IMG/VR virus record: IMGVR_UViG_3300045988_145476
DNA from: a virus
Reading direction: 5' to 3' (one strand)
Length of the DNA stretch: 64,000 nt
Positions 4,424-62,428 of the stretch are shown here, piece by piece (position 1 is the first letter of the stretch; each line of letters starts with the position of its first letter). The notes below the pieces were generated by a model. It saw only the letters and a list, made by a program, of their open reading frames with translations, searched no databases and had not been told where the DNA came from. A program made the position numbers and the translations under genes.

Positions 4424-5320
4424 ATGGTAATCGGAAAAATTAAACCGAGCGCTACTCTTGTAGCACAATTCGCAGCAGGTGTTGAAGTTGAAGCAATCCA
4501 ACACGATGGAAAAATGTTTTTACCCGTAGTTTCACTGGGTGAGTTTGGCGCAACAGAAGTCCCTTCTGATTCTCCTGCACGGGAACCTAAACCTGACAAG
4601 AAGCCTGCTCCCGCTGCACCTGCCGAAACGTCTGACGTGAAGACGTACACGAAAGACGAACTCATGGATATGGAGTCCAAAGAGTTGATTAAAATCTTGA
4701 AGAACGATTACTCCATTGACCCCGATGATTACGATGGAAAGAACACGAACAAGAAACTTCGTGACCTTATTCTGAAAGCTCAAGAGGAAAACGGTGGTGA
4801 CGATGCCGAGAATGACGACGAGAAGCCTGCACCGAAGAGAGGTAAAGACGCTCCGAAAGAAGACGAGGGCGGTGATGATTTGACCGACAAAGTTGCTGAC
4901 CTGCTTGAGGAGTTTGACGATGGCACCCGTAACAAAAAGAAGACCATTGAAGCAATCTGCAATTTGGTAGACGATGCCGACAAAGATGCAATCACCGAAC
5001 TTATTGACAACTTTGAAGAAGACGGTGACGCTTCCATAGACGATACTGCCGAGGAAATCGCCAACGCCCTTAGTGGTGAAAAGAAGAAACCTGCACCGAA
5101 GAAACGTGGTGAAAAATCAAAAAAGGAAGAACTCGTTGAGGCGGATGACCTCGAAGTCGGCGACCGAGTTTCCGTTTACTGGAATGACGAGAACAAGGAA
5201 TGGTATGACGGTGAAGTAGACTCAATCAAAAAGGGTAAAGTTCACGTTGCCTACGATGATGGCAGTGATGATTTCATAGACCCGAAAATCCATACTAAGA
5301 TTAAGAGACTTGCCAAGTAA
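4424..5320 (+). CDS. acidic/Lys-rich protein with HeH(SAP/Rho-N)-like motif and C-terminal Tudor-like domain
   Basis: ELMDMESKELIKILKNDY...NKKLRDLILKAQEE (HeH-like). Long D/E-rich low-complexity middle. KKKPAPKKRGEKSKK. C-terminal VGDRVSVYWNDENKEWYDGEVDSIKKGKVHVAYDDGS (Tudor/Agenet-like). Confidence 0.6.
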   Translation: MVIGKIKPSATLVAQFAAGVEVEAIQHDGKMFLPVVSLGEFGATEVPSDSPAREPKPDKKPAPAAPAETSDVKTYTKDELMDMESKELIKILKNDYSIDPDDYDGKNTNKKLRDLILKAQEENGGDDAENDDEKPAPKRGKDAPKEDEGGDDLTDKVADLLEEFDDGTRNKKKTIEAICNLVDDADKDAITELIDNFEEDGDASIDDTAEEIANALSGEKKKPAPKKRGEKSKKEELVEADDLEVGDRVSVYWNDENKEWYDGEVDSIKKGKVHVAYDDGSDDFIDPKIHTKIKRLAK

Positions 5321-5342
5321 GCCCGATTACCGTAAGTTGATT

Positions 5343-5379
5343 ATAGCCGAGGGTAGTAAAATATCTTCGGCTATTTTTG
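5343..5379 (+). terminator. rho-independent terminator
   Basis: ATAGCCGA (5343-5350) / TCGGCTAT (5367-5374) 8-bp stem followed by a T-run 5374-5378. 23 nt after the stop of 4424..5320. Confidence 0.6.
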
Positions 5380-5403
5380 TTTCCTAACTTAAATTATTAC
5401 ACC

Positions 5404-5685
5404 ATGAATAAAGAAGAACTTATTAGACAGGTTGCGAAAATCGCACGAAAGAGTCAGGCTGATACTGCCGATGTTATCGAAGCATTGGTAAACGTTATCC
5501 AGCATACTGTTGTTAATGAGCCTATCAATATTCCGGGTATCGGTAAATTCTCTGTACGTGCCCGTAAGGGTTTTGTAACGAGAAGTCCTTTCACTGGTGA
5601 ACAACAGATAACCGTTCCCGACAGATTGGCTTTCAAATTTACCCCTTGTGATGCAATCAAAAGAAAGTTGAACGCTAAAAAGTAA
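5404..5685 (+). CDS. HU/IHF-family histone-like DNA-binding protein
   Basis: MNKEELIRQVA...VIEALVNVI...PGIGKFSVRARKGFVTRSPFTGEQQITVPDRLAFKFTP matches the HU fold signature. Start taken at ATG 5404. Confidence 0.85.
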   Translation: MNKEELIRQVAKIARKSQADTADVIEALVNVIQHTVVNEPINIPGIGKFSVRARKGFVTRSPFTGEQQITVPDRLAFKFTPCDAIKRKLNAKK

Positions 5686-5689
5686 AGCT

Positions 5690-6154
5690 ATGCCAGAAAG
5701 AAAAAGTAAACCCAAGAAGTCCTCTGAACTTTCCAATGAGGAAATGGCACTTCTTGGTATTCAATACGTAAACAAGAAGGAAGCTATTAAGGAGCTTGAC
5801 AAACAGTGTAAGGAACTCCGTTCCCCGCTTGAGAGCTACCTTGAATCTTCGGGTAAGGTAACTTCCACCGGCTCCCGTCTTGCCATTCTTCCTTATGCGG
5901 ATGTGGACGTTACGCTTAAACATACATGCAGGGAAAGTTACCAACTTCTTCCCGAAGCCGCTGATGTCCTCAAAGAACTTGGTTTCTCAGAGTGTATCGA
6001 ACTTGTTCCCGTAATACGTGAGGACAAGATTGATGTTCTTGTCGAAGCCGGTAAAATATCACCGGAAGATTTGGCCCGCATCTATGTTCCCAAAACGAGC
6101 TATGCGTTCAGTGTTGACATTAAGGAGAGATTCGATGAAAAAGGAATTGACTAA
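5690..6154 (+). CDS. hypothetical protein
   Basis: 154-aa ORF directly after HU. No motif recognised. Confidence 0.5.
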   Translation: MPERKSKPKKSSELSNEEMALLGIQYVNKKEAIKELDKQCKELRSPLESYLESSGKVTSTGSRLAILPYADVDVTLKHTCRESYQLLPEAADVLKELGFSECIELVPVIREDKIDVLVEAGKISPEDLARIYVPKTSYAFSVDIKERFDEKGID

Positions 6155-6461
6155 CTCTCGTTGTGAGAAGACGCTTAATATCGGTGGTGAACTTATCAAG
6201 ATGGTTACTGTAATGGGTCTTGCCCAAATAGTAGGAAAGAGTAGACGTACTATCCAACGGTACGAAGAAGTGGGTATCTTCCCACCCGCTCCTATTATCT
6301 ATAAGGACAGACGTTATTACTCTCTCGCCCTCGCACATAAGCTCCGACCTTTGGTTATGCTTATTCCGGGTAACAAGAAACCGCCCGCTGAACTGCTCAC
6401 CGAGATAAACAAACTGTTTAACGAAGAAAGGAATTATTATGCCAGTAAAGAAAATCGCTGA
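6135..6461 (+). CDS. MerR-like helix-turn-helix protein
   Basis: MVTVMGLAQIVGKSRRTIQRYEEVGIFPP resembles a MerR-type HTH. Start at ATG 6135 chosen to minimise overlap. Confidence 0.5.
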   Translation: MKKELTNSRCEKTLNIGGELIKMVTVMGLAQIVGKSRRTIQRYEEVGIFPPAPIIYKDRRYYSLALAHKLRPLVMLIPGNKKPPAELLTEINKLFNEERNYYASKENR

Positions 6462-6693
6462 TACAGAAACAATTGAAAGTTTGCGACAGAACGGAGCAAC
6501 TGTTTACTATGAGAAGTCTGTAACGAAAAACATGGGGGATTATAACTCCGCTAAAGTTACAGTAGGTATCACCTTACCGATTAAGCCTACAAAGGAAGAA
6601 ATTGAGTATATCAAGGATACCATTGAAGTAGCTGACGAGATAGTTACTGACGAGATTGAAAACCAAGTTGCAGAGTTATTAGACGATAAATAG
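6439..6693 (+). CDS. small acidic protein (hypothetical)
   Basis: 84-aa ORF with an E/D-rich C-terminal half (EEIEYIKDTIEVADEIVTDEIENQVAELLDDK). Confidence 0.45.
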   Translation: MPVKKIADTETIESLRQNGATVYYEKSVTKNMGDYNSAKVTVGITLPIKPTKEEIEYIKDTIEVADEIVTDEIENQVAELLDDK

Positions 6694-6694
6694 T

Positions 6695-7468
6695 ATGAAC
6701 GCACTTTTGGGATTACGGAAGTCGATGCCTATTACGGGGGTTATCCCGTTTAAATATCTACTCTATGCGGCTTTACTCTCAAACGTTGTGCAGTATGTAG
6801 AGGATGATACCAAATGGGGAATATTCGTTGAGACAGAAAGTGACCTCTATGATTACTTTCCCGATTGGACTTCTTCGGATGAACGACTTGATGAAGTTTA
6901 CAACGCTTTACAGGAACTCGCTGATGAAGGGTTCATTTTTTTCGATGATGATGAACGAATATTTCTCGGAGAGTTTCGGGGAAGGAAGTTTTTCCCATTT
7001 GAGGCTAAAACCTCTTTGTATAGTGAGGCACATGAACTTCTTGAAGATTCTCTTGAACAGTTCAGTAAAAGTAAGTCAGGAGTATGCCGTTCCCGCAGCA
7101 GGTTTATCCGTTCCAAAATTTCGGATATGCTTGAAAAGGGAATTGAAAAACTTACTCCGGGTGACTTTACGGAACTTCATGGTTACTTGTACGAAATTTA
7201 TACGGGCGGTGAGATATACAATCTCCGTAATAAAGTGGAATACTTCCAGACATCAAACATGCTAAAGGCGTATGATAAATCTACGGTTTTCGCACTTCTT
7301 GTTGAAGGAGTTCTCCACTTTGACAAATATCGGAAGAAAGGTGTTCCCACGCTTACTACGGTAGCCTGTATGAAAGATGATGTAATGCGTTCCCTTACTC
7401 ATAAGGATGCTGGTTCCAAAGAGTATATGCGGGAAATGAGTAGTTCGACCAGCGGTAGTGGATTTTAA
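6695..7468 (+). CDS. hypothetical protein (possible replication initiator; position only)
   Basis: 257-aa ORF immediately upstream of the DnaC-like and DnaB-like genes. No motif recognised with confidence. Confidence 0.45.
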   Translation: MNALLGLRKSMPITGVIPFKYLLYAALLSNVVQYVEDDTKWGIFVETESDLYDYFPDWTSSDERLDEVYNALQELADEGFIFFDDDERIFLGEFRGRKFFPFEAKTSLYSEAHELLEDSLEQFSKSKSGVCRSRSRFIRSKISDMLEKGIEKLTPGDFTELHGYLYEIYTGGEIYNLRNKVEYFQTSNMLKAYDKSTVFALLVEGVLHFDKYRKKGVPTLTTVACMKDDVMRSLTHKDAGSKEYMREMSSSTSGSGF

Positions 7469-7470
7469 GT

Positions 7471-8088
7471 ATGGATAAAGTATCTGATTATTATCTCATG
7501 TGTGGTATAAAGAAAGGATGGCACTCCAAATCACTGGACGATTTTACCAATGATGATGAAGCCCTTGCCCACGTGAAGAATTATTTGCGTAAATTTGCCG
7601 AAGCTAAAGAAAGCGGTGTCGGTCTGTATTTATGGGGAAGTAACGGCACTGGTAAGACACATCTTATGTGCTGTGCGTTTAAAGAACTTATCAGTCGTAA
7701 GCAGACGGTACGGGTATTTACCATAGATGAAATCGTAGACCAGTTCACCGCTTCTTGGTATTCCCCCGAACATAAACGGGAGCTTAACCACATGTTACGG
7801 ACGGTTGATTTTTTGGGAATTGACGAGTTCGGTAAGAATGTCGGTAAAGACGGGGAAGCGATATATCTTCCGGATATGGTGAAACGTATTATGGAGTCAG
7901 TTATCCGCTTTCGTGTACAGATGAAACGACCGATATGGTTTTCTTCTAACACAGACCCTAAGTTTGTTCGGGAAGTGTTCTCCGAGGACATTGCTTCATT
8001 ACTTAATGAAGCGGTTATTGACGTATGTGTTCGTGGAGAGGACTATCGGAAAATTGTTCAACGCAATAATAAAAAGAGGTTCTTATGA
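7471..8088 (+). CDS. DnaC/IstB-like AAA+ helicase-loader ATPase
   Basis: Walker A LWGSNGTGKTHL and Walker B FLGIDEFG. ATGA overlap with the downstream helicase gene. Confidence 0.75.
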   Translation: MDKVSDYYLMCGIKKGWHSKSLDDFTNDDEALAHVKNYLRKFAEAKESGVGLYLWGSNGTGKTHLMCCAFKELISRKQTVRVFTIDEIVDQFTASWYSPEHKRELNHMLRTVDFLGIDEFGKNVGKDGEAIYLPDMVKRIMESVIRFRVQMKRPIWFSSNTDPKFVREVFSEDIASLLNEAVIDVCVRGEDYRKIVQRNNKKRFL

Positions 8089-9353
8089 AAGTAGGCGAAC
8101 AGTTGTTTGTGTCTTGTTTAAAACGTAAAGACCATAAGATTCTCTCCGTTGTACAGAAGCAATGGTTGGACGATGATGAAGCCCGACAGTACCGATGTAT
8201 AATGGAGTATTATCGTGAACATGGTGAGATGATGGGTCTTAGGACGTTCGTTGATAAGTTCGGTTTAGACTCTTCGGGAGCCGATTCCCGACCGGCATAT
8301 TATCTGAACGCTCTTAAAGAACGCTACATTTTCGCAACGGTGTCGGAGAAAGTACCCAAGATACTAAAGGGTATCAAGTCCGACCCCCGTGGAAGATTGT
8401 CGGAGTTCCAGTCCCTTATCGCCATGTTATCGGTGGATGCCGTTGAAAGCAAAGACACTCTTTATTCCGATGATATTGAAACACGTATTGAGGAGTATAA
8501 AAAACGTACTGAAAAAATGGGTGTCACTCATTTAAGTATGGGTGCTCCCGATATGGATGCTACGTTTTACGGGTACAGGAAAAATGACTTGATTACTATC
8601 GGTGGTAAAGCCGGTGTAGGTAAAAGTTGGCTTATGTTATACCTTGCCTTTTTATTGGAAGGTGTAGTGAAGGAACGTTGTGAACTTGGAGAAACGCTTG
8701 GTGATATTTTGTTTATCACTAATGAGATGGGTGAAGATGAAATAAAGGAACGCATTGACTGTTTAAAATTTCATCTTCCCTTTGAAGCTTTTCAAAAAGG
8801 TACTCTTACGGAACGTGAAAGAAAACGTTATTTTCAAGGACTTAAAAAGTTAACCAGTGAGCCGTCAAAGTTGCGTATCGTATATAGCTGCCAAACTATT
8901 GACGAGCTTTCCACATACATAGGTCTTTTCCAACCGTCCGCTGTATTCATAGACGGTTCCTATCTTATGGAAAGCAGGATGCAAGAGGGGTGGGAGAAAA
9001 TCGTGTACATCACCCGTAATTTGAAAAGGCTTGCCAAGAACTTTTCCGTCCCTATTATAAACTCTACGCAGTTAAAGAGGGGTTCTTCCAAGACCGCTTC
9101 CAAATATTCACTGGACGGTCAGGATGATTTTGCCTACTCAAATTCTTACTCTCAGGATTCCGATTTGGCTATCCGTATGTTTCAGGACGCAGATATGAAG
9201 TTCCATGATGTAGTAGGATGCGAGGTTGTAAAGGGAAGACGTGTTAAAGGAAATACTACGTTTGTCTTTCAGAATGACTTGACAAATATGTGCCAATCAC
9301 TAACATTACCGGCCGATGAATCTTCCTCAACACCTGTTGTCCCAGATTTGTAA
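8085..9353 (+). CDS. DnaB-like replicative DNA helicase
   Basis: Walker A GGKAGVGKSWLM, Walker B-like AVFIDGSYLM, and NSTQLKR (DnaB H3-like SQLxR motif). Confidence 0.8.
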   Translation: MKVGEQLFVSCLKRKDHKILSVVQKQWLDDDEARQYRCIMEYYREHGEMMGLRTFVDKFGLDSSGADSRPAYYLNALKERYIFATVSEKVPKILKGIKSDPRGRLSEFQSLIAMLSVDAVESKDTLYSDDIETRIEEYKKRTEKMGVTHLSMGAPDMDATFYGYRKNDLITIGGKAGVGKSWLMLYLAFLLEGVVKERCELGETLGDILFITNEMGEDEIKERIDCLKFHLPFEAFQKGTLTERERKRYFQGLKKLTSEPSKLRIVYSCQTIDELSTYIGLFQPSAVFIDGSYLMESRMQEGWEKIVYITRNLKRLAKNFSVPIINSTQLKRGSSKTASKYSLDGQDDFAYSNSYSQDSDLAIRMFQDADMKFHDVVGCEVVKGRRVKGNTTFVFQNDLTNMCQSLTLPADESSSTPVVPDL

Positions 9354-22314: not shown

Positions 22315-22531
22315 TTTAGAACGTACGGCTACTGCTGAGATAAGGAAAGAAAGTCTTACCCTTGCAGTGCAGCTATTATCCGCCCATAATTATGTAGCCT
22401 CTCCTGTATGCTGTTCAGACAGCGTTAAACCCGAAACCGAAGAAACCGATAGAATTTCTAATTTGCGGGATGATGTGTTATCTTTGGCCCAGAGTTTTGA
22501 ATGTTACATCTGTAAAGGTACTACAATATAA
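22301..22531 (+). CDS. hypothetical protein
   Basis: 76-aa ORF. No motif recognised. Confidence 0.4.
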   Translation: MAPLDLERTATAEIRKESLTLAVQLLSAHNYVASPVCCSDSVKPETEETDRISNLRDDVLSLAQSFECYICKGTTI

Positions 22532-23535
22532 TGGCACGAATAATGAAAAGGAAGCGTATCCCGAAGACATTGATACGCAGTAATAATGTAGTCGTTAAGA
22601 ACCCTACAAGTAAGAGCTGCTGGAAAACTATCAGCGGATATGAGGGTTATTATGAAGTTTCTGATAAAGGAGTTGTACGTGCGATAACACGTGATGTTCC
22701 ATATAAAAATGGAAAAATACACTCTTTGAAAGGACGAGTTATAAAACCTTCAAAAGATAAAGATGGCTATTTGCTTGTGCATCTTTATAAAAATGGAAAA
22801 ACTACGACTTTTAAAGTTCATAGGTTGGTTGCTCAAGAGTTCATTCCAAACCCAGAAAAATTTCCCGATGTAAATCACAGAAATGAAGTGAAAGATGATA
22901 ATCGGGTAGAAAATCTGGAATGGTGTACAAGAGAGTATAATGTAAATTACGGTGATAGAAATAAGAAAGCAGGAGAGCTACTTACTAAGTTTTTATATCA
23001 AAGATTTACCATTGATGGTAAATATATAGATACTTTAAAGTACCAAGAAATTCTTGATGAAGGTTTTGATTATGGTTTTGTTGTTAAAGCTGCCACAGGT
23101 GAATATAAGACAGCTTATGGTTTAATCTGGAAAAGGATTCTCGTAGAAGATTACAAAAAAGGAGTTACTCCTATTCTACGAAGAAATGGAGTAGTGGTTA
23201 ACAAACCTACTTCTAAAGTTTCTTGGAAAAGTTTCGAGCGTTTGGTCGCCAATTTCTTCCATACCAAGAGAGTTCCTCTTTCCGGAAGTAATAGTGGTCA
23301 TAACACAAACAGCGATTCCTTACATCCTAAATTATACATAGAATGTAAGGTGCGTAATAAGTTTTCCTTATGGCAGTTATTTCTTGACACTGAACAAAAA
23401 GCCAAAGTGGAGAAAAAGTTACCCGTAGTCGCTATCAAACAGAAAGGTGAAAAAGGTTATCTTCTTGTGATACGACCGGAAGACCTCGAAAAAATTGCAG
23501 AAATAAGAGCCGAAGTTTTTGAAGTTGAGGAATAA
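22531..23535 (+). CDS. HNH homing endonuclease (NUMOD4 + HNH) fused in frame to a PD-(D/E)xK-like nuclease domain
   Basis: SGYEGYYEVSDKGVVRA (NUMOD4). VNHRNEVKDDNRVENLEWCTREYN (HNH_3). C-terminal ~115 aa (SGSNSGHNTNSD...YIECKVR) is paralogous to 16509..16865. Confidence 0.75.
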   Translation: MARIMKRKRIPKTLIRSNNVVVKNPTSKSCWKTISGYEGYYEVSDKGVVRAITRDVPYKNGKIHSLKGRVIKPSKDKDGYLLVHLYKNGKTTTFKVHRLVAQEFIPNPEKFPDVNHRNEVKDDNRVENLEWCTREYNVNYGDRNKKAGELLTKFLYQRFTIDGKYIDTLKYQEILDEGFDYGFVVKAATGEYKTAYGLIWKRILVEDYKKGVTPILRRNGVVVNKPTSKVSWKSFERLVANFFHTKRVPLSGSNSGHNTNSDSLHPKLYIECKVRNKFSLWQLFLDTEQKAKVEKKLPVVAIKQKGEKGYLLVIRPEDLEKIAEIRAEVFEVEE

Positions 23536-23594: not shown

Positions 23595-23879
23595 ATGGAA
23601 GCAATTAATGGAGACAAACAAGTTCTGAGGTGTAAGTCCTCAACGGATGCTAACAAACTTGCCGGAAGCATCCATTCAACTTACCAGAGTAACCCAACAA
23701 AAGACCTCTTTCTTCGTGTGATTGGTGCAGGTGCATTAAACCAAGCTACTAAGGCGGTAATTATCAGTAATAAGTTCTTTGCGAAAAAAGGTATCGTACT
23801 GGCAATGCAACCGTCTTTCCAAGACACCGAGGATAAGACTACTGTAATTGAACTAAAGGTTTTGTTTATTCGGAATTAA
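23595..23879 (+). CDS. SpoVS-like protein
   Basis: LRCKSSTDANKLAGSIHS...FLRVIGAGALNQATKAVIISNKFFAKKGIVL...TVIELKV closely parallels the SpoVS signature (IGAGALNQAVKAIAIAR). Confidence 0.8.
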   Translation: MEAINGDKQVLRCKSSTDANKLAGSIHSTYQSNPTKDLFLRVIGAGALNQATKAVIISNKFFAKKGIVLAMQPSFQDTEDKTTVIELKVLFIRN

Positions 23880-23992: not shown

Positions 23993-24103
23993 ATGGCAAA
24001 AAGAGGTGCAAAAACAACGAGAGCTGCTGCTCGTAAGACTGCTGCCGGTAGAGGTGGCCGTGGTGGTAGAAAAGCTGCTGCTAAGGGTTCAACTTCTGCA
24101 TAA
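23993..24103 (+). CDS. 36-aa highly basic Arg/Gly/Ala/Lys-rich micro-protein
   Basis: MAKRGAKTTRAAARKTAAGRGGRGGRKAAAKGSTSA*. Below the ORF-track cut-off. Preceded by TTTG(23895)-N18-TATTTTTG(23917-23924) and followed by a strong terminator. Confidence 0.5.
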   Translation: MAKRGAKTTRAAARKTAAGRGGRGGRKAAAKGSTSA

Positions 24104-24122
24104 GCTGAGTGGCAACCGCAAT

Positions 24123-24153
24123 AAAACCCCCGCAATATCTTGTGGGGGTTTTT
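24123..24153 (+). terminator. rho-independent terminator
   Basis: AAAACCCCCGCA / TGTGGGGGTTTT 12-bp stem (one G-U), 6-nt loop, T-run 24149-24153. Confidence 0.75.
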
Positions 24154-24174
24154 AATTCATAAACGTTTAAAACT

Positions 24175-24903
24175 ATGGAAAAGAAAGTATTACTATTCTC
24201 CGGCGGTTTGGATTCTATGTTACATGAATGGCTTATAAAGCCTGACGTACTTTTGTACGTAGACATGAAAACGTCCTATTCCGAACGGGAAATCGAGGCA
24301 CTTAATCGGCTACCCTCTTATTACAAAGAGAGGATTGTTATCAAACAACTTCCATTGGGAGAGTATGAACGGGAAAACAAATATCTCCCCTATCGTAATC
24401 TTATACTCGGAGCTATCGCCATGCAGTACGGACAGTATGTATATTTTGGGTTCAACAATCACGATAATGCGCCCGATAAGGATGATACGTTCCTGCGCAG
24501 AACAAATAAACTGTTCGACCATTTAAATATAAACTGCATGGCCGATATGAATTGGGATAAACCGTCTTACGGATTTTTCGCCCCGTTCAAAGATTATTCT
24601 AAAACCGATTTGATGCGGAAATGTCTTGCTAAAGAAATGCCCGTTGAGTGGATACAGAATATTCGCTCATGCTATGACGGGGTTTCCCAAAAGGGATGCG
24701 GTGTATGTAACGTATGTTTCAATAAGGCGGTCGCCCTGCTTAATAACGGAATATACGAGGACTCTCTTTTTGATACTCCTATTACTGACGAGACATTCCG
24801 TATTAAGTTGAACGATATAAAAGACGATACAGATGCGCACACACAGAAGTACATCAGAGAAGTTCATTCGGCGAGAAGAGCATTACAACAAATTCACCAA
24901 TAA
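24175..24903 (+). CDS. queC: 7-cyano-7-deazaguanine (preQ0) synthase QueC
   Basis: PP-loop LLFSGGLDSM. C-terminal zinc cluster SCYDGVSQKGCGVCNVCFNKA. Confidence 0.85.
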   Translation: MEKKVLLFSGGLDSMLHEWLIKPDVLLYVDMKTSYSEREIEALNRLPSYYKERIVIKQLPLGEYERENKYLPYRNLILGAIAMQYGQYVYFGFNNHDNAPDKDDTFLRRTNKLFDHLNINCMADMNWDKPSYGFFAPFKDYSKTDLMRKCLAKEMPVEWIQNIRSCYDGVSQKGCGVCNVCFNKAVALLNNGIYEDSLFDTPITDETFRIKLNDIKDDTDAHTQKYIREVHSARRALQQIHQ

Positions 24904-25801
24904 AGGGCTTTTATATTTTTCCGCCTCTTCAACGGGTGACTTCCAGCAACTCTATGATTTCGGTATCAGAGAAATGCTTGTATCATTCTTTTATATAAAG
25001 AAAAACCCCTCTTACTATGATAAGATGCTCCCTCTCCTTAAAAAGGAAGGGGGTATCTTTATGACAGACTCCGGAGCCTTCTCCTTTATGGCTAAGTTCC
25101 GTGAAGACTCTCCCGAATACAAGGATTCCGTATATGAAAAATTCTGGATACCCTATCTTGAAGAATATGTAGCGTGGATACGTGCCCATAAGGACTATAT
25201 ATTTTCCGCTGCCAATCTTGACTTGGATACTATTGTCGGTAGGGATGTGGTTGATAAGTGGAATAAGGAATATTTTGAACCCCTTGAACGTGAGGGCATC
25301 CAGATTGTGTATGTTGCACACTGGGATGAAGATATTGATAAGACCGGTTTACGCAGACTTGAGGAGTACTTGCAAAAATACCGATATGTAGGTATCAATC
25401 AAAATCATAAACAGTGGGCATCCCGTATCTACCAACTGGTGAAAAAGTACCGGCGTAGAATACATGGTTTCGCTTGGACGGAGTTTGATTTGCTAAAGCA
25501 TTACCCGTTTTTTTCTGTGGATTCCGTTACATGGTTGGGTGGTGTTCGATTCGGTACAACGTATAATTATGACGGAAAGAATTTCAGCACTATTGACTAC
25601 AAGCATAAATACCGGAGAAAGGCCAATCGTCTTAAATATGAAAGTAGGGGAATTGACTATGAGGGAATAAAAAGTGAGAAACGTGTCCCTATTAATCAAA
25701 TGAACCTAATCGGTTGGTTAGGGTTTAGAAAAGAATACCTGCGTATGGCAAATTTAAAACTTCACACCAGAGTAGTAGGTGATTATGAGAGAAAGTTGTA
25801 G
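24833..25801 (+). CDS. dpdA: DpdA-like (TGT-family) DNA guanine transglycosylase
   Basis: MTDSGAFSF resembles the TGT catalytic TDSGGFQ. Located between queC and queE. Start uncertain (ATG 24833 overlaps queC by 71 nt; ATG 24974 is an alternative). Confidence 0.6.
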   Translation: MRTHRSTSEKFIRREEHYNKFTNKGLLYFSASSTGDFQQLYDFGIREMLVSFFYIKKNPSYYDKMLPLLKKEGGIFMTDSGAFSFMAKFREDSPEYKDSVYEKFWIPYLEEYVAWIRAHKDYIFSAANLDLDTIVGRDVVDKWNKEYFEPLEREGIQIVYVAHWDEDIDKTGLRRLEEYLQKYRYVGINQNHKQWASRIYQLVKKYRRRIHGFAWTEFDLLKHYPFFSVDSVTWLGGVRFGTTYNYDGKNFSTIDYKHKYRRKANRLKYESRGIDYEGIKSEKRVPINQMNLIGWLGFRKEYLRMANLKLHTRVVGDYERKL

Positions 25802-25826
25802 ATTTGCTTTCATTTTAGTATATTTG
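25795..25826 (+). promoter_or_regulatory. possible promoter
   Basis: TATATTTG 25819-25826 with an imperfect -33 (GTTG 25795-25798 at 20-nt spacing). Confidence 0.35.
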
Positions 25827-25850
25827 AATAATCATTGAAACGTAAACCGC

Positions 25851-26606
25851 ATGGAAACCAGTATTAAAAAACGGATTGATATTGTAAAAGCAACCAGTGA
25901 TTATGAGACTTTAAAAACTCACCTATGCTCATTCTTTGAGAAAGGGGATTGCCCCGATTGTGTAGGTTGTCGAAAAGCAGAATCCGATATAGACGATTGT
26001 CGTTCTTATTATCTTGAACGTATAGTTATTCATCCTATGGATATTTGGCGTGAAGAGTTCGATACGATAAAAGTTCTTTCTCGTGATAAAGTCGCTGTTG
26101 AGGATATTGTCGGTATCGGAGTAAGTTGTGACAGATGCTATATGTATGATAAATGCCCGTTATACAAGAAAGGGTATGTGTGCGCAATTGATTGGGGTTC
26201 TTCAAGACCTACCAGCCCTAAAGCATTTTATGACTTTCTTGTTGACTTGCAATATGAACGAGTACAACGGGCAGCAATATTTGAGAAAGTAGACGGTGGT
26301 GTTGCGGACGGTAACTTATCCAATGAGATTGACCGTTTGACTGACCTTATAGAATCACAAGCCAATCTTAATCGGGAACGATTGAACATCAATATCGAGG
26401 CTTCGGGTTCTGCTACTGCCCCCGCTACCGGCGGTGGTCTTCTTTCCCGAATATTCGGAAGCGGTTCTCCTACACCTGCGGTAGAAGAAAAGAAAACAAT
26501 CGAAATACCGGCAACTCCGTCTTCACGGGAAGATATTGCCGAAGTAGCCGAAATAATTGAGGAACCCGAAAAAGTAAAGGTTCCCCGTAAACGTAAGAGC
26601 GTATGA
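25851..26606 (+). CDS. Cys-rich hypothetical protein inside the deazaguanine cluster
   Basis: CPDCVGCRKAESDIDDC and CDRCYMYDKCPLYKKGYVC clusters. No family recognised. Confidence 0.5.
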   Translation: METSIKKRIDIVKATSDYETLKTHLCSFFEKGDCPDCVGCRKAESDIDDCRSYYLERIVIHPMDIWREEFDTIKVLSRDKVAVEDIVGIGVSCDRCYMYDKCPLYKKGYVCAIDWGSSRPTSPKAFYDFLVDLQYERVQRAAIFEKVDGGVADGNLSNEIDRLTDLIESQANLNRERLNINIEASGSATAPATGGGLLSRIFGSGSPTPAVEEKKTIEIPATPSSREDIAEVAEIIEEPEKVKVPRKRKSV

Positions 26607-26923
26607 CAACAGTAAAGAAACATCTTCGGAAAAGGAAAAACAAGAAATCGGTAGTCCGTAGTTATGTCCGTAAAGACAGAACTCACCGTATCGTGAACGG
26701 TGAAAGACAAGTATATGTAGACCATTTCTGGAAACATGACGACTATCCCAATGCTCCTAAGCCGGGCTGGTCGTATGAACATTTGATGAAAGAACGCAAT
26801 AAATTACAGCGTGACTTATCCGAAGGTCTTTCCGGCGCACAAACGCTTCCCCCTCGTAAATACGGGTTATTAACTCGACGTATCAGAAAGATAAATCGTA
26901 TCTTAAAATCGAAAGGACGTTAG
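26603..26923 (+). CDS. basic protein with N-terminal VKxxxRxxKxxKxVxVRxYxR motif
   Basis: MTTVKKHLRKRKNKKSVVRSYVRKD resembles the N-terminal motif of the 59781/60256/61188 paralogues. Confidence 0.5.
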   Translation: MTTVKKHLRKRKNKKSVVRSYVRKDRTHRIVNGERQVYVDHFWKHDDYPNAPKPGWSYEHLMKERNKLQRDLSEGLSGAQTLPPRKYGLLTRRIRKINRILKSKGR

Positions 26924-26991
26924 TATGAGAAAAAAACCTCGTTCTTTCCATTTATCGAAATACAGAAAGAAACCAACTAAATGTACTCATT

Positions 26992-27468
26992 ATGGAACAC
27001 AGAAAGATGCAAGACAGTCCGACAGGACTTCCTGCCCACCTTGAAAAATCTTTGGTGGGTTCGACTATCGAATATTCGTTCGGTAAGAAAGTAAGTTCGG
27101 CGCTCTCTATTTCCGGAAATATTGATGCTGCTAAAGAGAGGATTAGAGAAAACGTAAAATTGGCCCATTCAGTTCAGGGTATTTATTGCGTGACGCTTCT
27201 CGGAGAAATGACCGCCTATTACCGGAATGAGATTTATTACATGGCGGTTAGAAGCTGTATAGAAATGAGACGGTTTAGAATACCCGTTCTTGAATACCTA
27301 AACCTTTCCGTTTCCGAACGTGCCGAAAGACTTTGTGACTTATTATCTAAGTCCAAACATCGTGAACTGGTGATAGAAGCTCTCAGATACTTTCTGCTTA
27401 TCTATCCTAACAGAACATCTTCATTTAAAAAGTATCTCTCACGAGAAGAATACATAACCGTAGCATAA
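26992..27468 (+). CDS. hypothetical protein
   Basis: 158-aa ORF between the basic protein and queE. No motif recognised. Confidence 0.45.
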   Translation: MEHRKMQDSPTGLPAHLEKSLVGSTIEYSFGKKVSSALSISGNIDAAKERIRENVKLAHSVQGIYCVTLLGEMTAYYRNEIYYMAVRSCIEMRRFRIPVLEYLNLSVSERAERLCDLLSKSKHRELVIEALRYFLLIYPNRTSSFKKYLSREEYITVA

Positions 27469-27469
27469 T

Positions 27470-28189
27470 ATGGAAAAAAGAAAATTAATGGTGAATACCA
27501 TCTACCCAGCATTTATGGGGGAAGTAAATTTATTAGGTATAGGTGCTCCATGCACCTTTGTTCGTTTATCCGGGTGTAATCTCCGTTGTTACAAAAACAC
27601 TATGGGAACCTTGTGTGATACGCCCGAAGCTCTTGAATTAAAGTGCGGGAAACCTATGAGTGTTGACGAGATTATCATGCAGCTCGACAAGTATGCAGAA
27701 CGCCCTATTATTTGTCTTACTGGCGGTGAACCGCTTATGCAAGATGTGGCCGAATTACTGGAAGAGTTATCCAGTAAAGGTTATGTCGTCATTGTAGAAA
27801 CAAACGGAAGTATCAGTATCGCTCCATATAAGCATATAAAGAATGTGTATTTCGTGGTTGACTGTAAGAGCGAAAGTTCCGGAGAGCATCTTCGTATGTT
27901 TGAGACCAACTATAAAGTCATGGGTAAAGGCGATTATCTTAAATTTGTTATCAATGACGAGCTTGACTACTATGGTATGCGCAAGTGGATAATAGAGCAT
28001 CCGGATTTTAGAGGTAATGTTGCGGTAGGGCTTTTTTGGGGGAGTGAACTCTCCTATAAGGAACTTATGAACTCCTTACGTGAAGACCGTCTTAATGTGT
28101 ACGTAAATATGCAGACGCATAAAATGACTTGTTTGTATGACGAGCACAGTGGTGAGCTAAGTAAGCTAATTATTCCCAAAGATTTGTAA
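27470..28189 (+). CDS. queE: 7-carboxy-7-deazaguanine synthase QueE (radical SAM)
   Basis: YPAFMGEVNLLGIGAPCTFVRLSGCNLRCYKNTMGTLCDTPE (CxxxC...C radical-SAM/QueE N-terminus). LTGGEPLMQ. Confidence 0.85.
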   Translation: MEKRKLMVNTIYPAFMGEVNLLGIGAPCTFVRLSGCNLRCYKNTMGTLCDTPEALELKCGKPMSVDEIIMQLDKYAERPIICLTGGEPLMQDVAELLEELSSKGYVVIVETNGSISIAPYKHIKNVYFVVDCKSESSGEHLRMFETNYKVMGKGDYLKFVINDELDYYGMRKWIIEHPDFRGNVAVGLFWGSELSYKELMNSLREDRLNVYVNMQTHKMTCLYDEHSGELSKLIIPKDL

Positions 28190-28270
28190 TTCTGAAATTT
28201 ATTTGTACCTTTGAGACGTTTCTAAGAATGGTTGAACAACCCGATATGTAGAACTTTTAAATTAAACGAA

Positions 28271-28504
28271 ATGGCTAAAATTACTGAACTGGTTATCTTG
28301 AACCCCTCGGACAAGACACGTATGTATGCAGTGTCAACCGGAAAAGGTGCTCCCGCCGATGCAGACGATGTTATTGTTACCAATGTGCGTGATTTCCCAG
28401 TCGGCTCCCAGTACACCGACTTGACAGGTAAGAAATTCTTCGTACGAGTAGCAGTTGACAAAGCCGTTGCCGATTGGAAAGAAATCGGTGGTGCTGCCGG
28501 CTGA
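28271..28504 (+). CDS. hypothetical protein
   Basis: ATG 28271 (MAKITELVILNP...) within the track ORF. Followed by a strong terminator. Confidence 0.5.
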   Translation: MAKITELVILNPSDKTRMYAVSTGKGAPADADDVIVTNVRDFPVGSQYTDLTGKKFFVRVAVDKAVADWKEIGGAAG

Positions 28505-45359: not shown

Positions 45360-46034
45360 ATGCTGGACAAATCAAAAACGGACCCGAAGTTAGGTAGGGA
45401 AATCCACCAACTTCTACATGACACAGGAATCGAAACCCCTATGATAGACTCAACGTTTCAGACCGAATCTGAAAAGTTTACCGCCATACGGGACAGCTTT
45501 AAGACTATCATGCAAACTCTTGGAATGGACTTGACCGATGATAGCCTTTCGGAAACCCCAAATCGTATTGCCAAGATGTACCTCAACGAAATATTTTGGG
45601 GTCTTGATTACAACAACTTCCCGAAAGTAACCACCATAGACAATAAGATGCAGTATAATTCCATGCTGCTGGAAAGAAACATAAAAGTTTCTTCATTCTG
45701 TGAGCACCACTTTGTGAACTTTGTAGGCAGTGCGTATGTTGCTTACATCCCGCACGGGAAAATAATCGGTTTGTCAAAGATAAACCGCATTGTTGAGTTC
45801 TTCTGCCGCAGGCCACAAGTGCAGGAACGCCTGTGTGAACAAATATGGGCGGCTCTCTGCCATGTACTTGAAACCGAAGACATTGCCGTTCTTATTCGTG
45901 CAGAACATTTCTGCGTTAAGTCAAGAGGAGTTGAGGATATTAATTCCGATACGGTTACTTCCCGTTTGGGCGGTTTGTTCTATGACAGTGAGCAAAGGGA
46001 CGAGTTTTATAAGGTACTCAACTTTGGTGTATGA
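45360..46034 (+). CDS. folE: GTP cyclohydrolase I (FolE)
   Basis: ETPNRIAKMY...SFCEHHFVNFVGSAYVAYIPHGKIIGLSKINRIVEFFCRRPQVQERL matches the type I GCH signature. Confidence 0.9.
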   Translation: MLDKSKTDPKLGREIHQLLHDTGIETPMIDSTFQTESEKFTAIRDSFKTIMQTLGMDLTDDSLSETPNRIAKMYLNEIFWGLDYNNFPKVTTIDNKMQYNSMLLERNIKVSSFCEHHFVNFVGSAYVAYIPHGKIIGLSKINRIVEFFCRRPQVQERLCEQIWAALCHVLETEDIAVLIRAEHFCVKSRGVEDINSDTVTSRLGGLFYDSEQRDEFYKVLNFGV

Positions 46035-46603
46035 AAGGATTTACTCTGATTGATAACGTATGGGTGGAGAATAGAATATTTCCCACCTATTTTTCTTGTG
46101 ACTATGACAAGTGTAAGGGAGCGTGCTGCTGGGCTGGTGATGCCAAAGATTATGACGGTGGTACATTGCTCGCCGAGGAAGCTCAGGAAATACTCCTTAG
46201 AAAAACCGCTCTCTCTCCGTTCACGAGTGAAGACTTGCGTAGTATTGCCGAGAATAGTCCAGTATATACCCGTAACGGCGGCATTTACACGAAACTTCAT
46301 TCTGACGGTAGATGCGTGTACATGAACGGAAAAGGATGCGCATTGAAAGACGCATGTGCTGCTGGAAAACTTTCATTCGATATTCCCGTTTATTGTCAGT
46401 TGTACCCGTTATGGGTGAGTGAACATTCTGACGGGAACATGAAGCTTTTCTTGGCTGATTCGTTCGAGGAGTTCTGCCGGCCCGCCTTTGAAAAGGGGCT
46501 TCGTGATAAAACAACTCTGTTACAGTTTTGCCGGATACCACTAATAAGATTTTTCGGTGAACCTTTCTACCAGACCTTATTCAATATGGTTACTCAAGAA
46601 TGA
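46031..46603 (+). CDS. Cys-cluster protein (DUF3109 / CxxCxxCC-like), translationally coupled to folE
   Basis: FSCDYDKCKGACCWAGDAKDYDGGTLLAEEA and DGRCVYMNGKGCAL...YCQLYPLW. ATGA overlap with the folE stop. Confidence 0.5.
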   Translation: MKGFTLIDNVWVENRIFPTYFSCDYDKCKGACCWAGDAKDYDGGTLLAEEAQEILLRKTALSPFTSEDLRSIAENSPVYTRNGGIYTKLHSDGRCVYMNGKGCALKDACAAGKLSFDIPVYCQLYPLWVSEHSDGNMKLFLADSFEEFCRPAFEKGLRDKTTLLQFCRIPLIRFFGEPFYQTLFNMVTQE

Positions 46604-51168: not shown

Positions 51169-51336
51169 TGAAAAAACAGTTTTTGTGTGTTAGTTTAATT
51201 CATTCAGTTAAGAATAGCGGTTCCCGTAGGTTATTTAGTAATGTTTCGTTTCGTATTAGTAGTAAATTGAAATGCACAGGATTTGCGTCCTTATAGACCA
51301 AGCGAGGTCGAACTATTGGAATTAGTTATTCGGTAA

Positions 51337-51367
51337 AGAGAGTGGCTTGTGAAAGTCGCTCTTTTTT
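51337..51367 (+). terminator. rho-independent terminator 170 nt downstream of dps
   Basis: AGAGAGTGGC / GTCGCTCT(TT) stem (two G-U pairs), 8-nt loop, T6 run 51362-51367. Confidence 0.55.
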
Positions 51368-52152
51368 CTGCCTTGTCAGAACGAAAAACGGGTAAATTTA
51401 TCTCTGAAACTAAGACAACCTCATTTTTCTATTTTAAAAAGACCAATTTTTACCCTCTTCCAACAGATACTATCCACATGCAGGAAAAATTTCCTTTTTT
51501 GCAGGGAAAATCTTCCCTTTTCCATAGAAATAACATAACTGCCTAACTAAGCTAACCAATAGAAAGTGTAGGGTAAACCGTACTTCTTTAAGTAATTACG
51601 TATGAACGCTCCCAAAAGAAAACAGATTCGCGGCTGAATGTTTTCTGTACTCTATAATACTTAATACTATATAATACTACATAAAAGATATATGTGGTGG
51701 GTTTCTCTCAAATTACGTAAACTCATGTGGTGGGTAATGGGTAGATAGGTAGAAAAGAAAGGTTATTGTAGATACCGATAGAAAATGGCCCTACGCATAC
51801 GTGTAGACGTGGTTGTGGGCTTATTCTAATTAGCTATTTACGGCAATAAGCATTATTTTCCATGCGTAATTAGCGTTATTTACTGCGTGTAATTAGCTAT
51901 TTTCTCTCTGTACGAGCGTTTATTTTAATTAGAAACGCAGTTATTTTAATTAGAAATACGCTTATTCTAACTGGAAATAGGTTTATTTTTCTGTGCAAAT
52001 AAGCTATTTTAGGCGAAATTTCCATAGATGTTTACAAAAACGCCTATTTTTTAATTTAAGCCGATATTGATTATCAGATAGTTAGCAAAAAATCTCCTAT
52101 GAAAGTATAAAAAACGCAGATTTAGAAATATTTTTACTTTCTAATTAGATTT

Positions 52153-52170
52153 TGGTTATTGCAATAACCA
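52153..52170. repeat. 18-bp perfect palindrome TGGTTATTGCAATAACCA
   Basis: Read directly. The GGTTAT half-site recurs at 53024-53044 and in the spacers of the duplicated promoters at 53120 and 55675. Confidence 0.9.
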
Positions 52171-53119
52171 CAACTACGTATGTAGATAACCAGTTACGCA
52201 GTAGAATTGGTGGTTTATTATGTGTAATTAGTATATAGCTGTATGTAACTATATGTAATTACCGCAGATTTATTATATAACTACCGGATTAATTGTTCCT
52301 GCGTGTTATTTTTCCGTATTAATTAAGTAGGAAATATATTATATAGAGTAATTGGGAGTTATTTTATTTATCGTACGGCGAAAAATTTAATTTTTGGCGG
52401 GATAATTTCTAATTAGCGTATTATAATAAGTAATTAATCACCGTAATAAGGAAAGATTTTATTCTCCGTGCGGATTATTCGTATTATCTACGGGAATATT
52501 ATATGAATTTCTAACTGGAAACCTTTTTACGGCGGAAAATTAAGTAGTAATTATATTAGTTAGCGTATAAAGCGAAAAACAATTCGGCGAATTTTTAATT
52601 TACGGCGGGATAATAGTACGTAGCGTAGACAGGATTTCAGTTCACGGAGCTGAATTTACTGGCAGGGGGGTACCCTTAAATGGAATGCGGCGCACGGTCG
52701 GCTTGGGGTAGTACGGTTAGGTAAGAAAGGAGTGGTGGAAAGTCGGACAATAATTAGTGTATATATGATAACTTCGGAAGTTTGTGTATGTGTGGTAACT
52801 TTGGTGGATACGGGTGGTGTGCGTGTGAAAATCGGTGGTAACGGGTGAAAAACGGGTGATTTGGAAATGTACTTGAAAATACAGGGTGCGGTTGACGTTT
52901 GGTGTGGAAATAAATTGCCGGAAGTTTGGAGTTCTCACTAAATATTAGTATATTAATATATAATTACTTGTATATAGTACTATGAAAGATATAGTGTCCG
53001 GATGTTTGGGATGCTTATCGGTCGGTTATGGTTATTGTAATAACTGGTAGTCGGTACGGTGGTATTTCCGTTAAATAATGTTATTATATAAACAATAACC
53101 AAATATTTTACCGGATATG

Positions 53120-61661: not shown

Positions 61662-61874
61662 ATGAATATATCTTCGTCAAATATCAGAACGGCTGACTAT
61701 GATAGAAAATCACGGACGTTGACTATGGTCTTTATCAATAGACCCCGATGGGTATATACCTATTATAATGTCCCCCCTACTGTATGGACACGTTTTTTAC
61801 AGTCAAACAGTAAAGGACAATATTTTTCTGCCGCTATCCGAGACATTTACCAGTATTCGAGAACAATCAAGTAA
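61662..61874 (+). CDS. KTSC-domain protein
   Basis: SSNIRTADYDRKSRTLTMVFINRPRWVYTYYNVPPTVWTRFLQSNSKGQYFSAAIRDIYQY matches the KTSC pattern. Confidence 0.7.
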   Translation: MNISSSNIRTADYDRKSRTLTMVFINRPRWVYTYYNVPPTVWTRFLQSNSKGQYFSAAIRDIYQYSRTIK

Positions 61875-61891
61875 CTTAAATATCAAAGACT

Positions 61892-62428
61892 ATGGCTACA
61901 ATTACAAGAGCGTTTGAGTTCGACGCAGCACATCGTGTAATGAATGAGAAAGTAAAATGCTTCAATTTGCACGGGCACCGTTTTAAAGTGGAAATGACTT
62001 TTGAGTATAACTCCAAGAGTCTTCTTGGATACGCTATTGACTTTAAGGAGATAAAGCGTATTGCCTGCGGATATATTGATGAACATTTAGACCACGCTTG
62101 CCTACTTAACCCCGAAGATACCGAGCTTATTGAGCTGTGCAGAAAACAAAACTGGCGTCTGTGGGTTATGGGAATGGGTGTGTATGGTGACATCAACCCG
62201 TCTGCGGAGAATATTGCTTCCGAGCTTTTCTATATTATCAGACAGTTATTCATTAATGAGCCTTGCGGTTTGCGTCTTACAAACTTACGGCTGTATGAGA
62301 CACCGAATTGCTGGGTTGATTGTTCCCGCATTGATTATGTGGCTACAAATATGTTCCTTGAGAATCTTGGTACATGGAGAAAACAAAAGGGTTCAATGAA
62401 GTACGACATAAGAGAAGACCATGAGTAA
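61892..62428 (+). CDS. queD: 6-carboxy-5,6,7,8-tetrahydropterin synthase QueD
   Basis: FEFDAAHRV...CFNLHGHRFKVEMTF (PTPS/QueD His triad and catalytic region). Confidence 0.85.
   Translation: MATITRAFEFDAAHRVMNEKVKCFNLHGHRFKVEMTFEYNSKSLLGYAIDFKEIKRIACGYIDEHLDHACLLNPEDTELIELCRKQNWRLWVMGMGVYGDINPSAENIASELFYIIRQLFINEPCGLRLTNLRLYETPNCWVDCSRIDYVATNMFLENLGTWRKQKGSMKYDIREDHE

Follow-up and report, generated by a model that had tools for sequence, protein, structure and literature searches.

The 64,000-nucleotide (nt) stretch of IMG/VR virus record IMGVR_UViG_3300045988_145476, here called the window, carries at positions 24175 to 28189 a block of genes that we read as part of a pathway replacing guanine in phage DNA by a 7-deazaguanine. 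Inside this block, a gene for a cysteine-rich protein follows the gene for a putative DpdA-type DNA transglycosylase. Window bases 24000-28300 are 99.7% identical to OP172706.1, the record of Bacteroides phage BS162P1, an 88.9-kb phage isolated from sewage whose host is B. salyersiae, and in that annotation all genes of the cluster are listed as 'hypothetical protein'. The cluster and the other pathway genes of the window are as follows.

24123..24153, + strand: terminator-like hairpin with a T-run (-20.7 kcal/mol; z = -4.83 against shuffles)
24175..24903, + strand: queC-like 7-cyano-7-deazaguanine synthase, divergent (Pfam QueC 4.6e-14; phrog_1550 4.4e-19)
24833..25801, + strand: putative DpdA catalytic core, a TIM-barrel DNA guanine transglycosylase, DpdA1-like (phrog_887 1.1e-32, profile positions 9-273 of 509)
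25851..26606, + strand: candidate DpdA accessory subunit (phrog_887 8.3e-20, profile positions 365-486 of 509)
26603..26923, + strand: small basic protein, lineage-restricted (isoelectric point, pI, 11.1; 30 Lys and Arg in 106 amino acids, aa; homologue in MT835482.1, 2.4e-50)
26992..27468, + strand: conserved protein of ~150 aa, Tyr/Arg-rich and predicted helical, ending 1 nt before queE
27470..28189, + strand: queE-like radical-SAM 7-carboxy-7-deazaguanine synthase (TIGR04349 4.6e-34; TIGR03963 9.6e-29; phrog_2076 6.5e-27)
45360..46034, + strand: folE, GTP cyclohydrolase I, first step of preQ0 synthesis (PF01227 3.5e-58)
61892..62428, + strand: queD, 6-carboxytetrahydropterin synthase of the PTPS family (PF01242 4.2e-30)

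All open reading frames (ORFs) of the block were confirmed at these coordinates, and they are tightly packed: queC and the dpdA core overlap by 71 nt, and the junctions that follow, through ORF 25851, ORF 26603 and ORF 26992 to queE, are a 49-nt gap, a 4-nt overlap, a 68-nt gap and a 1-nt gap. The hairpin forms the upstream edge of the cluster, between ORF 23993-24103 and queC. The Bacteroides -7 promoter motif TAnnTTTG showed no enrichment (77 matches, with 66 +/- 9 expected by chance), so we make no promoter claims, and an RNA search of the window found no preQ1 riboswitch, no other Rfam family and no tRNA. A preliminary description of this DNA had placed the pathway genes at 24175, 24833, 27470, 45360 and 61892, and each of them has supporting family matches. 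The dispersal that it reported was also borne out, as folE and queD lie far from the block, but the genes occupy three places (24.2-28.2 kb, 45.4 kb and 61.9 kb) and not four loci. The 8-nt overlap between queD and the terminase gene proved exact, with queD ending at 62428 and the terminase ATG at 62421; the N-extein of the ORF that begins there is homologous to the annotated large terminases of phages BCD7 (2e-28) and BRock (5e-24).

The gene set leading from GTP to preQ0 appears to be complete, comprising predicted FolE, QueD, QueE and QueC. With Pfam matches above gathering, the assignments of folE and queD are unambiguous, and the CxxxHGH motif of QueD is present as 'CFNLHGH'. QueC passes the Pfam gathering threshold (52.9 bits against 22) and carries an SGGLDS PP-loop and a Zn-type motif, C166-x8-C175-x2-C178-x2-C181, but it reaches only 35 bits against the NCBIfam equivalog TIGR00364, whose cut-off is 150, and isofunctionality is therefore not assured. 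The five best NCBIfam matches of QueE are all QueE models (4.6e-34 to 7e-10), all under their equivalog cut-offs, and in Pfam Fer4_12 scores above gathering and Radical_SAM reaches 27.8 bits against 29.5.

What happens beyond preQ0 depends on which further enzymes are encoded. Among the matches listed by Pfam for 77 further window ORFs, no candidate was seen for QueF, a glutamine amidotransferase, ArcS/PUA, a DpdC-like protein, a methyltransferase or a formyltransferase, and tblastn with E. coli QueF and the Gat-QueC of phage 9g, run on the window and the remaining 28 kb of the genome, gave nothing below E 0.3. The absence of QueF, an amidotransferase and DpdC, already proposed in the preliminary description, is thus upheld by the listed Pfam matches, and for QueF and Gat-QueC by tblastn as well. 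Because none of these was found, dPreQ0 is the default prediction for the modified base. The dPreQ0 systems of CAjan and Rosebush (FolE, QueD, QueE, QueC and DpdA1; PMC6884629) are built on the same five genes and likewise have neither an amidotransferase nor QueF. Unlike those systems, the window phage belongs to a gut Bacteroides host, and its pathway is scattered over 38 kb, whereas that of BCD7 forms one compact block.

The ORF 24833 product is best described as a predicted phage DpdA of the 9g-like (DpdA1-like) class, a class assigned by comparison with 9g DpdA. The label of phrog_887 is 'queuine tRNA-ribosyltransferase', and searches for Pfam TGT (PF01702), NCBIfam tgt and PADLOC DpdA gave no match to the product. 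With tblastn it found the DpdA of BCD7 (4e-28) and also 9g-type and mycobacteriophage DpdAs, the 9g DpdA itself at 4e-6 and, in a second search, at 2.5e-10. The preliminary description had held that clustering with the tRNA-guanine transglycosylases (TGT) would count against a DpdA. When we ran hhalign with a profile of 30 clade members as query, the core matched 9g DpdA with 97.9% probability (E 3.7e-13) and Bipper DpdA with 98.2%, against 3.1% for E. coli tRNA-Tgt over 22 columns, in which the DSGGF motif alone was aligned. Since hhalign favors the 9g and Bipper DpdAs over Tgt, the core does not cluster with tRNA-TGT.

The catalytic residues point the same way. In S. Montevideo DpdA, Asp95 is the acid/base, Phe99 the gating residue, Asp130 serves base recognition and Asp256 is the nucleophile (PMC10164549, PMC6884629). 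Across the 30 clade members, D79-S80-G81-x-F83 is invariant and aligns with 'DSGAFS' of 9g and 'TDSGGFQ' of E. coli Tgt, and H211 (HGF) is invariant and was aligned by hhalign to H196 of 9g, a position at which a conserved His has no counterpart in DpdA2 (PMC6884629). D230 (FFSVDS), also invariant, aligns with 'YSCDS' of 9g and 'YSVDS' of Bipper, and its equivalence to Asp256 comes through 9g and not from direct alignment to the bacterial enzyme. The window core is therefore homologous to the 9g and Bipper enzymes and shares their DSGxF, His196-equivalent and nucleophile-Asp motifs. D130 and D132 ('NLDLD') are clade-invariant too, and the alignment to 9g is gapped at the segment of the base-recognition Asp130. 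Conserved Y18 and K24 back the ATG at 24833 as the start. An AlphaFold2 model of the core (predicted local distance difference test, pLDDT, 89.6; predicted template modeling score, pTM, 0.88) shows the eight alternating beta/alpha units of a TIM barrel. Experimentally, phage 9g DpdA inserts preQ0 into DNA and works alone in E. coli (PMC6884629).

These comparisons bear on another use of the same genes, as auxiliary metabolic genes that raise the supply of queuosine precursor for host tRNA, with a 24833 product that acts on tRNA or is inactive and with phage DNA left unmodified. Phages with preQ0 genes were once proposed to boost queuosine in host tRNA (discussed in PMC6884629), and for BS162P1 DNA modification is a prediction from genes. 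However, in alignments the 24833 product goes with the phage DpdAs that act on DNA, not with tRNA-Tgt, and neither Pfam TGT nor NCBIfam tgt matches it, so that we regard a role in tRNA supply as very improbable.

The core contains no cysteine and hence lacks CXCX2CX22H, the structural Zn site that bacterial DpdA and TGT enzymes conserve (PMC10164549). The 9g DpdA also lacks the motif, and the site is thus a feature of the bacterial DpdA and TGT enzymes and not of this phage subfamily.

The gene at 25851, directly downstream, encodes a protein with nine cysteines and a pI of 5.1. An N-terminal set (C26, C37, C40 and C50) is followed by a core cluster, C93-x2-C96-x5-C102-P-x8-C111, by a helical hairpin at residues 123-185, a disordered linker, the tail motif GGGLLSRIFG and a basic end. 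The preliminary description counted three ORFs of unknown function between dpdA and queE, which still holds for 26603 and 26992, neither of which has a family match, but not for 25851, whose product is homologous to the C-terminal domain of the long phage DpdAs of BCD7 and BRock. A single PHROG family, phrog_887, spans both parts, its earlier positions matching ORF 24833 and its later ones ORF 25851. In the DpdA of Bacillus phage BCD7 (gp21, 757 aa) the core and the C-terminal domain stand in a single chain with a long K/E-rich linker between them, and in that of Streptomyces phage BRock (gp36, 500 aa) both parts are fused as well. The window shares core, C-terminal domain and terminase lineage with these long forms, but what is one polypeptide in BCD7 and BRock is encoded by two genes in the window and its gut-phage clade.

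Close homologues of the 25851 product number 54, and at the profile level the family extends to 823 clusters among 1.84 billion representatives. A hidden Markov model of the DpdA core also matches 29 of the 149 best of these 823 clusters, including most of those of at least 440 aa, and in these proteins the DpdA domain is N-terminal. By length, 78 representatives are stand-alone (~250 aa) and 31 are long (>=430 aa). In stand-alone and fused forms alike, C93, C96, C102, P103, C111, Q134, R137, E145, G149-G150, S157 and E159 are near-invariant, as is the tail G-h-h-x-x-h-F-G among these 78 + 31 representatives. From this alignment we define three features of the domain in the present analysis, the cluster C-x2-C-x5-CP-x8-C, a hairpin with Q..R...E...GG...S.E and the G-h-h-x-x-h-F-G tail, and all three are present in the 25851 product. 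The N-terminal cysteine set, in contrast, is specific to forms not fused to DpdA; it lies in an extra segment of ~90 aa that the fused BCD7/BRock-type forms lack.

The stand-alone gene lies directly 3' of dpdA in every member of the gut-phage clade examined, with a 4-nt overlap in contigs L007 and L009, a 2-nt gap in MT835482.1 and 49 nt in the window. A frameshift or an intron joining 24833 and 25851 was ruled out, as the two lie in different frames, 25851 begins with an ATG of its own, and all clade members examined have it as a separate gene; the split is therefore genuine. Genes that are fused in relatives and otherwise strictly adjacent are a classical sign of a physical or functional partnership. 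As the 25851 product is fused to DpdA in relatives and its gene is strictly adjacent to dpdA here, we read it as a putative trans-acting DpdA accessory subunit and not as an orphan. One further candidate for a split-off copy of the domain, Bipper gp4, was rejected (E 1.4).

A third architecture combines an HNH endonuclease, the N-terminal Cys segment and the accessory domain, in six proteins of 355-412 aa and one of 784 aa. Metagenomic examples are L010 369-1607, P0275, P0276, P0279, P0285, P0292 and P0307. The genomic context of these genes could be read in two cases: in L010 the gene begins 3 nt after the DpdA core, and in L011 its position is five genes downstream of such a core. A protein of this kind might act as a nuclease that docks by way of the same module.

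Inteins, which usually occupy functionally critical sites, interrupt several parts of this system in relatives. The dpdA of MT835482.1, the closest relative (5989-8187, 732 aa), has a LAGLIDADG intein at the nucleophile motif (FFSSDS/S...VVHN/TTWLGG, slashes marking the intein boundaries; Pfam Intein_splicing 2.6e-23), one residue past the nucleophile Asp, whereas the window dpdA is intein-free. In the metagenomic protein P0274 (854 aa) an intein sits at the second Cys of the cluster (QCDT/C...VAHN/CYMKDKCP), and splicing restores C-x2-C-x5-CP-x8-C. A third one interrupts the HNH part of a protein with the HNH-plus-domain architecture (P0273; L011 4614-6968).

What the accessory domain does may be narrowed by its surroundings. 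Fused forms have variable linkers, 23 to 445 aa long and with many acidic residues, for which reason we favor a flexibly tethered module over a subdomain packed against the barrel. An AlphaFold2 model of the 25851 product (pLDDT 68.5) has three N-terminal helices, a poorly defined Cys-cluster region, the long hairpin at 123-185 and a disordered tail with a short helix at the conserved motif. A structure search with this model gave no significant PDB match (best E 0.75) and in BFVD only its own uncharacterized family, and profile searches of the protein found no match in Pfam, NCBIfam, PADLOC or PDB sequences. A simple DNA-binding role is disfavored by the acidity of residues 91-190 (pI about 4.9). 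The beta-clamp-binding consensus is QL[SD]LF, and on inspection the spacing of the G-h-h-x-x-h-F-G tail does not fit it, so the tail was set aside as a canonical clamp motif.

The cysteines themselves invite a different account, in which the protein supplies in trans a structural metal subdomain, the counterpart of the CXCX2CX22H Zn site, and is an integral part of the enzyme instead of a tether. The core without cysteine and its partner with nine, four of them invariant, would suit such a complementation, as would the constant position of the accessory gene directly 3' of dpdA and the conservation of the Zn site in bacterial DpdA and TGT (PMC10164549). On the other hand, fused forms set the domain off from the barrel by their variable linkers, the C-x2-C-x5-C-x8-C spacing is unlike CXCX2C...H, HNH nucleases carry this domain as well, and 9g DpdA is active without Zn motif and without accessory domain (PMC6884629), all of which makes a missing piece of the barrel rather doubtful. 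The bacterial Dpd system offers a looser parallel: its DpdA, with DpdB, is likewise a DNA guanine transglycosylase with a partner, and the two systems have the TIM barrel and the pair of catalytic Asp residues in common, but DpdB is an ATPase (PMC10164549), whereas in the 25851 product neither an ATPase motif nor a family match can be recognized. The window core also lacks the structural Zn site that bacterial DpdA has, and it has no PADLOC DpdA match. The likeness is that of an enzyme plus an accessory factor and not one of homology.

Carried further, the tethered arrangement could mean that the four-Cys domain is a hitherto unrecognized metal-binding recruitment module, which through its tail would tether DpdA in most phages, and an HNH nuclease in others, to DNA-handling machinery of the phage, for instance the replisome or the packaging motor, and, together with the 26992 product, set the extent or the sites of modification. 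We consider this a speculative proposal that is unlikely; if true, guanine replacement would be coupled to DNA synthesis or packaging.

The two remaining ORFs of the block differ in their conservation. ORF 26603 overlaps the 25851 gene by 4 nt (ATGA), which suggests that it is translationally coupled to the accessory gene. Its homologue was seen only in MT835482.1, and the same slot in L007 and L009 holds no homologue, so that it is dispensable in related clusters; Pfam, PHROG, NCBIfam and PADLOC searches gave no match. ORF 26992, by contrast, has homologues between the accessory gene and queE in MT835482.1 (1.3e-24), L007 (1.1e-36) and L009 (2.2e-73), which puts its family in the same slot in four lineages, with 11 close database homologues. 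In the alignment Y77, Y82, Y83, R87, R94, R110 and R124 are invariant, the invariant residues being mostly Tyr, Arg and aliphatic. There was no match in Pfam, PHROG, NCBIfam, PADLOC or PDB, and none of BCD7, BRock, 9g, Bipper, L010 and L011 has a counterpart close to DpdA. ORF 26992 thus appears to be a clade-specific member of the queC-queE unit. All three ORFs are genuine genes and not chance ORFs, because the 25851 family is large and has invariant residues, 26992 is conserved in its slot, and 26603 has a close homologue in MT835482.1.

Since QueC is divergent and the 26992 protein unexplained, the product might be something other than dPreQ0. The final base could be another 7-deazaguanine, such as 7-amido-7-deazaguanine (ADG), 7-carboxy-7-deazaguanine (CDG) or an undescribed derivative, either because QueC stops early or because the 26992 or 26603 protein modifies the base before or after insertion. 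The low TIGR00364 score of QueC would fit the first route and the conservation of ORF 26992 just before queE, with no known fold or family, the second; known phage pathways have gained extra enzymes in a similar manner, namely DpdL, DpdM and DpdN (PMC10516641), and in the relative L009 genes for a glycosyltransferase and another QueC-like protein are present in addition. Yet QueC retains its PP-loop and Zn-type Cys motif and passes Pfam gathering, the 26992 family has no catalytic-type motif or cofactor-binding signature, and neither the listed Pfam matches (QueF, amidotransferase, DpdC) nor tblastn (QueF, Gat-QueC) brought up an enzyme that would take preQ0 further. We therefore see a different base as possible, though improbable.

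Taken together, a complete preQ0 pathway with a DNA-type transglycosylase is supported by the computational checks and predicts a 7-deazaguanine in virion DNA. In our proposed sequence of events, the phage FolE, QueD, QueE and QueC would make preQ0 from GTP, and the DpdA-type transglycosylase would swap guanines in the phage DNA for preQ0 after replication, giving dPreQ0 by default (rule of Hutinet et al.). DpdA in this lineage would be a two-gene enzyme, in which the 24833 product is the Cys-free catalytic TIM barrel and the 25851 product, encoded by a gene of its own, corresponds to the C-terminal domain that in many relatives is fused on through a long flexible linker. The accessory protein may bind a metal, Zn or Fe-S, through its four invariant cysteines, and its conserved C-terminal peptide may dock or tether the transglycosylase to a partner, either the DpdA core or a larger DNA-handling assembly. 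The 26992 product would be a further, clade-specific component of the unit and the 26603 product an optional add-on. To this reading as a whole, that is, the phage's own preQ0 synthesis and a two-gene DpdA replacing DNA guanine with the help of an accessory subunit, with dPreQ0 as the default base, we assign a probability of about 0.62.

Several observations weigh against it. QueC and QueE score far under the NCBIfam equivalog cut-offs, and their product might differ from preQ0; the base is a prediction from genes alone. The 50 top Foldseek hits of the DpdA model are generic TIM barrels (probability 1.0) with no TGT or DpdA structure among them, and sequence and profile searches of the PDB with the core returned no entry, and hence no TGT. 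The accessory protein, which is acidic, matches no known structure or family, and its role is drawn from fusion and synteny only. The DpdAs of 9g and Bipper have no accessory domain, and that of 9g is active alone (PMC6884629), so that the domain is not universally required; nor is it strictly DpdA-specific, as it is also found on HNH nucleases.

The distribution of the domain follows a phage lineage. It occurs in ten isolated-phage records, BS162P1, MT835482.1, two of BCD7 and six of BRock-like Streptomyces phage, and all 10 fall among the 12 records that share this large-terminase lineage. Sharing of terminase and domain shows common descent and by itself is no proof of a functional link. 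It suggests a single broad phage lineage across Bacteroidota, Bacillota and Actinomycetota hosts. In the more distant relative L009 (Logan DRR595537_1759), positions 4643-7091, 5' of dpdA, encode a second QueC-like PP-loop protein, a family-2 glycosyltransferase and a longer QueC of 323 aa with a C-terminal extension, and this phage may carry a further hypermodified 7-deazaguanine.

Other features of the window lie around the pathway genes. Upstream of the cluster, positions 22531-23535 encode an HNH/NUMOD4 endonuclease whose C-terminal part weakly matches RusA-like resolvases (phrog_244 1.1e-4), and a SpoVS-like protein is encoded at 23595-23879, just 5' of the cluster; a SpoVS gene precedes queC in all relatives examined and is also found near the BCD7 cluster. 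The tiny ORF at 23993-24103, which is followed by the hairpin and then by queC, encodes 36 aa of highly basic sequence (MAKRGAKTTRAAARKTAAGRGGRGGRKAAAKGSTSA) and is annotated in BS162P1. A Cys-rich DUF3109 protein (PF11307 2.6e-31) containing 'CKGACC' is encoded at 46031-46603, in a 4-nt overlap with folE. It is missing in the closest relative and unlinked to DpdA elsewhere, being otherwise seen only in unannotated faecal phage contigs, and it probably stands outside the core pathway. A KTSC-domain protein (61662-61874; 1.3e-17) is encoded directly 5' of queD.

At least two genes of the window itself bear inteins. The large terminase gene (62421-64000, running off the end; 2724 nt for the whole gene in BS162P1) has a LAGLIDADG intein (LAGLIDADG_3 3.6e-12, Intein_splicing 1.2e-6) inserted at about 63060, between ...VEEAQDVDDLIVQK and CYAEDT, and an 868-aa ResIII/DEAD helicase at 390-2996 carries another (Hom_end_hint 4.9e-21, LAGLIDADG_3 2.4e-14). 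From about 51200 to 53100 the window has ~1.9 kb of AT-rich, almost ORF-free sequence with many short direct and inverted repeats, into which both ends of the GenBank record map (end about 52896, start about 53088), and this stretch may be a genome terminus or an origin region. Pfam matches among the ORFs of 28.5-45.3 kb and 46.6-61.6 kb include a Tad2-like Thoeris anti-defence domain, two sigma-70-type factors, a crAss001_48-related protein, a GNAT acetyltransferase, a ferritin-like protein, a eukaryotic-type topoisomerase IB catalytic core and DUF3268.

In a literature search of incomplete coverage we found no publication naming BS162P1 or a 7-deazaguanine pathway in Bacteroides phages, none on the C-terminal domain, the split form, the HNH-fused form or an Fe-S/Zn accessory domain of DpdA, no experimental work on any long-form DpdA, and no report of a DpdA intein. 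The pathway is of a known kind, the CAjan/Rosebush class of gene content. It differs from that class in its DpdA, which is split over two genes and has an uncharacterized conserved domain as its second part, in the further conserved gene embedded in the cluster and in the scattering of its genes; 9g and Bipper lack both the separate Cys-rich partner and the ~150-aa protein. The split DpdA with its accessory domain is a new form of the known system.

In conclusion, a full 7-deazaguanine pathway that had gone unannotated can be assigned to a cultured Bacteroides phage and also to a prevalent clade of phage contigs from the human gut. Modification of DNA with 7-deazaguanines is a known phage counter-defence, and the finding bears on restriction evasion, as well as on sequencing and cloning artefacts in gut virome work. 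The share of G that DpdA replaces extends from under 0.1% to 100%, and a number of phage DpdAs show no activity if expressed by themselves (PMC10516641). With regard to what sets DpdA efficiency, this locus points to an uncharacterized accessory domain that is widespread at the profile level (823 clusters). As the two parts of DpdA are encoded by separate genes in this lineage, each can be expressed with or without the other, and the role of the domain is directly testable.

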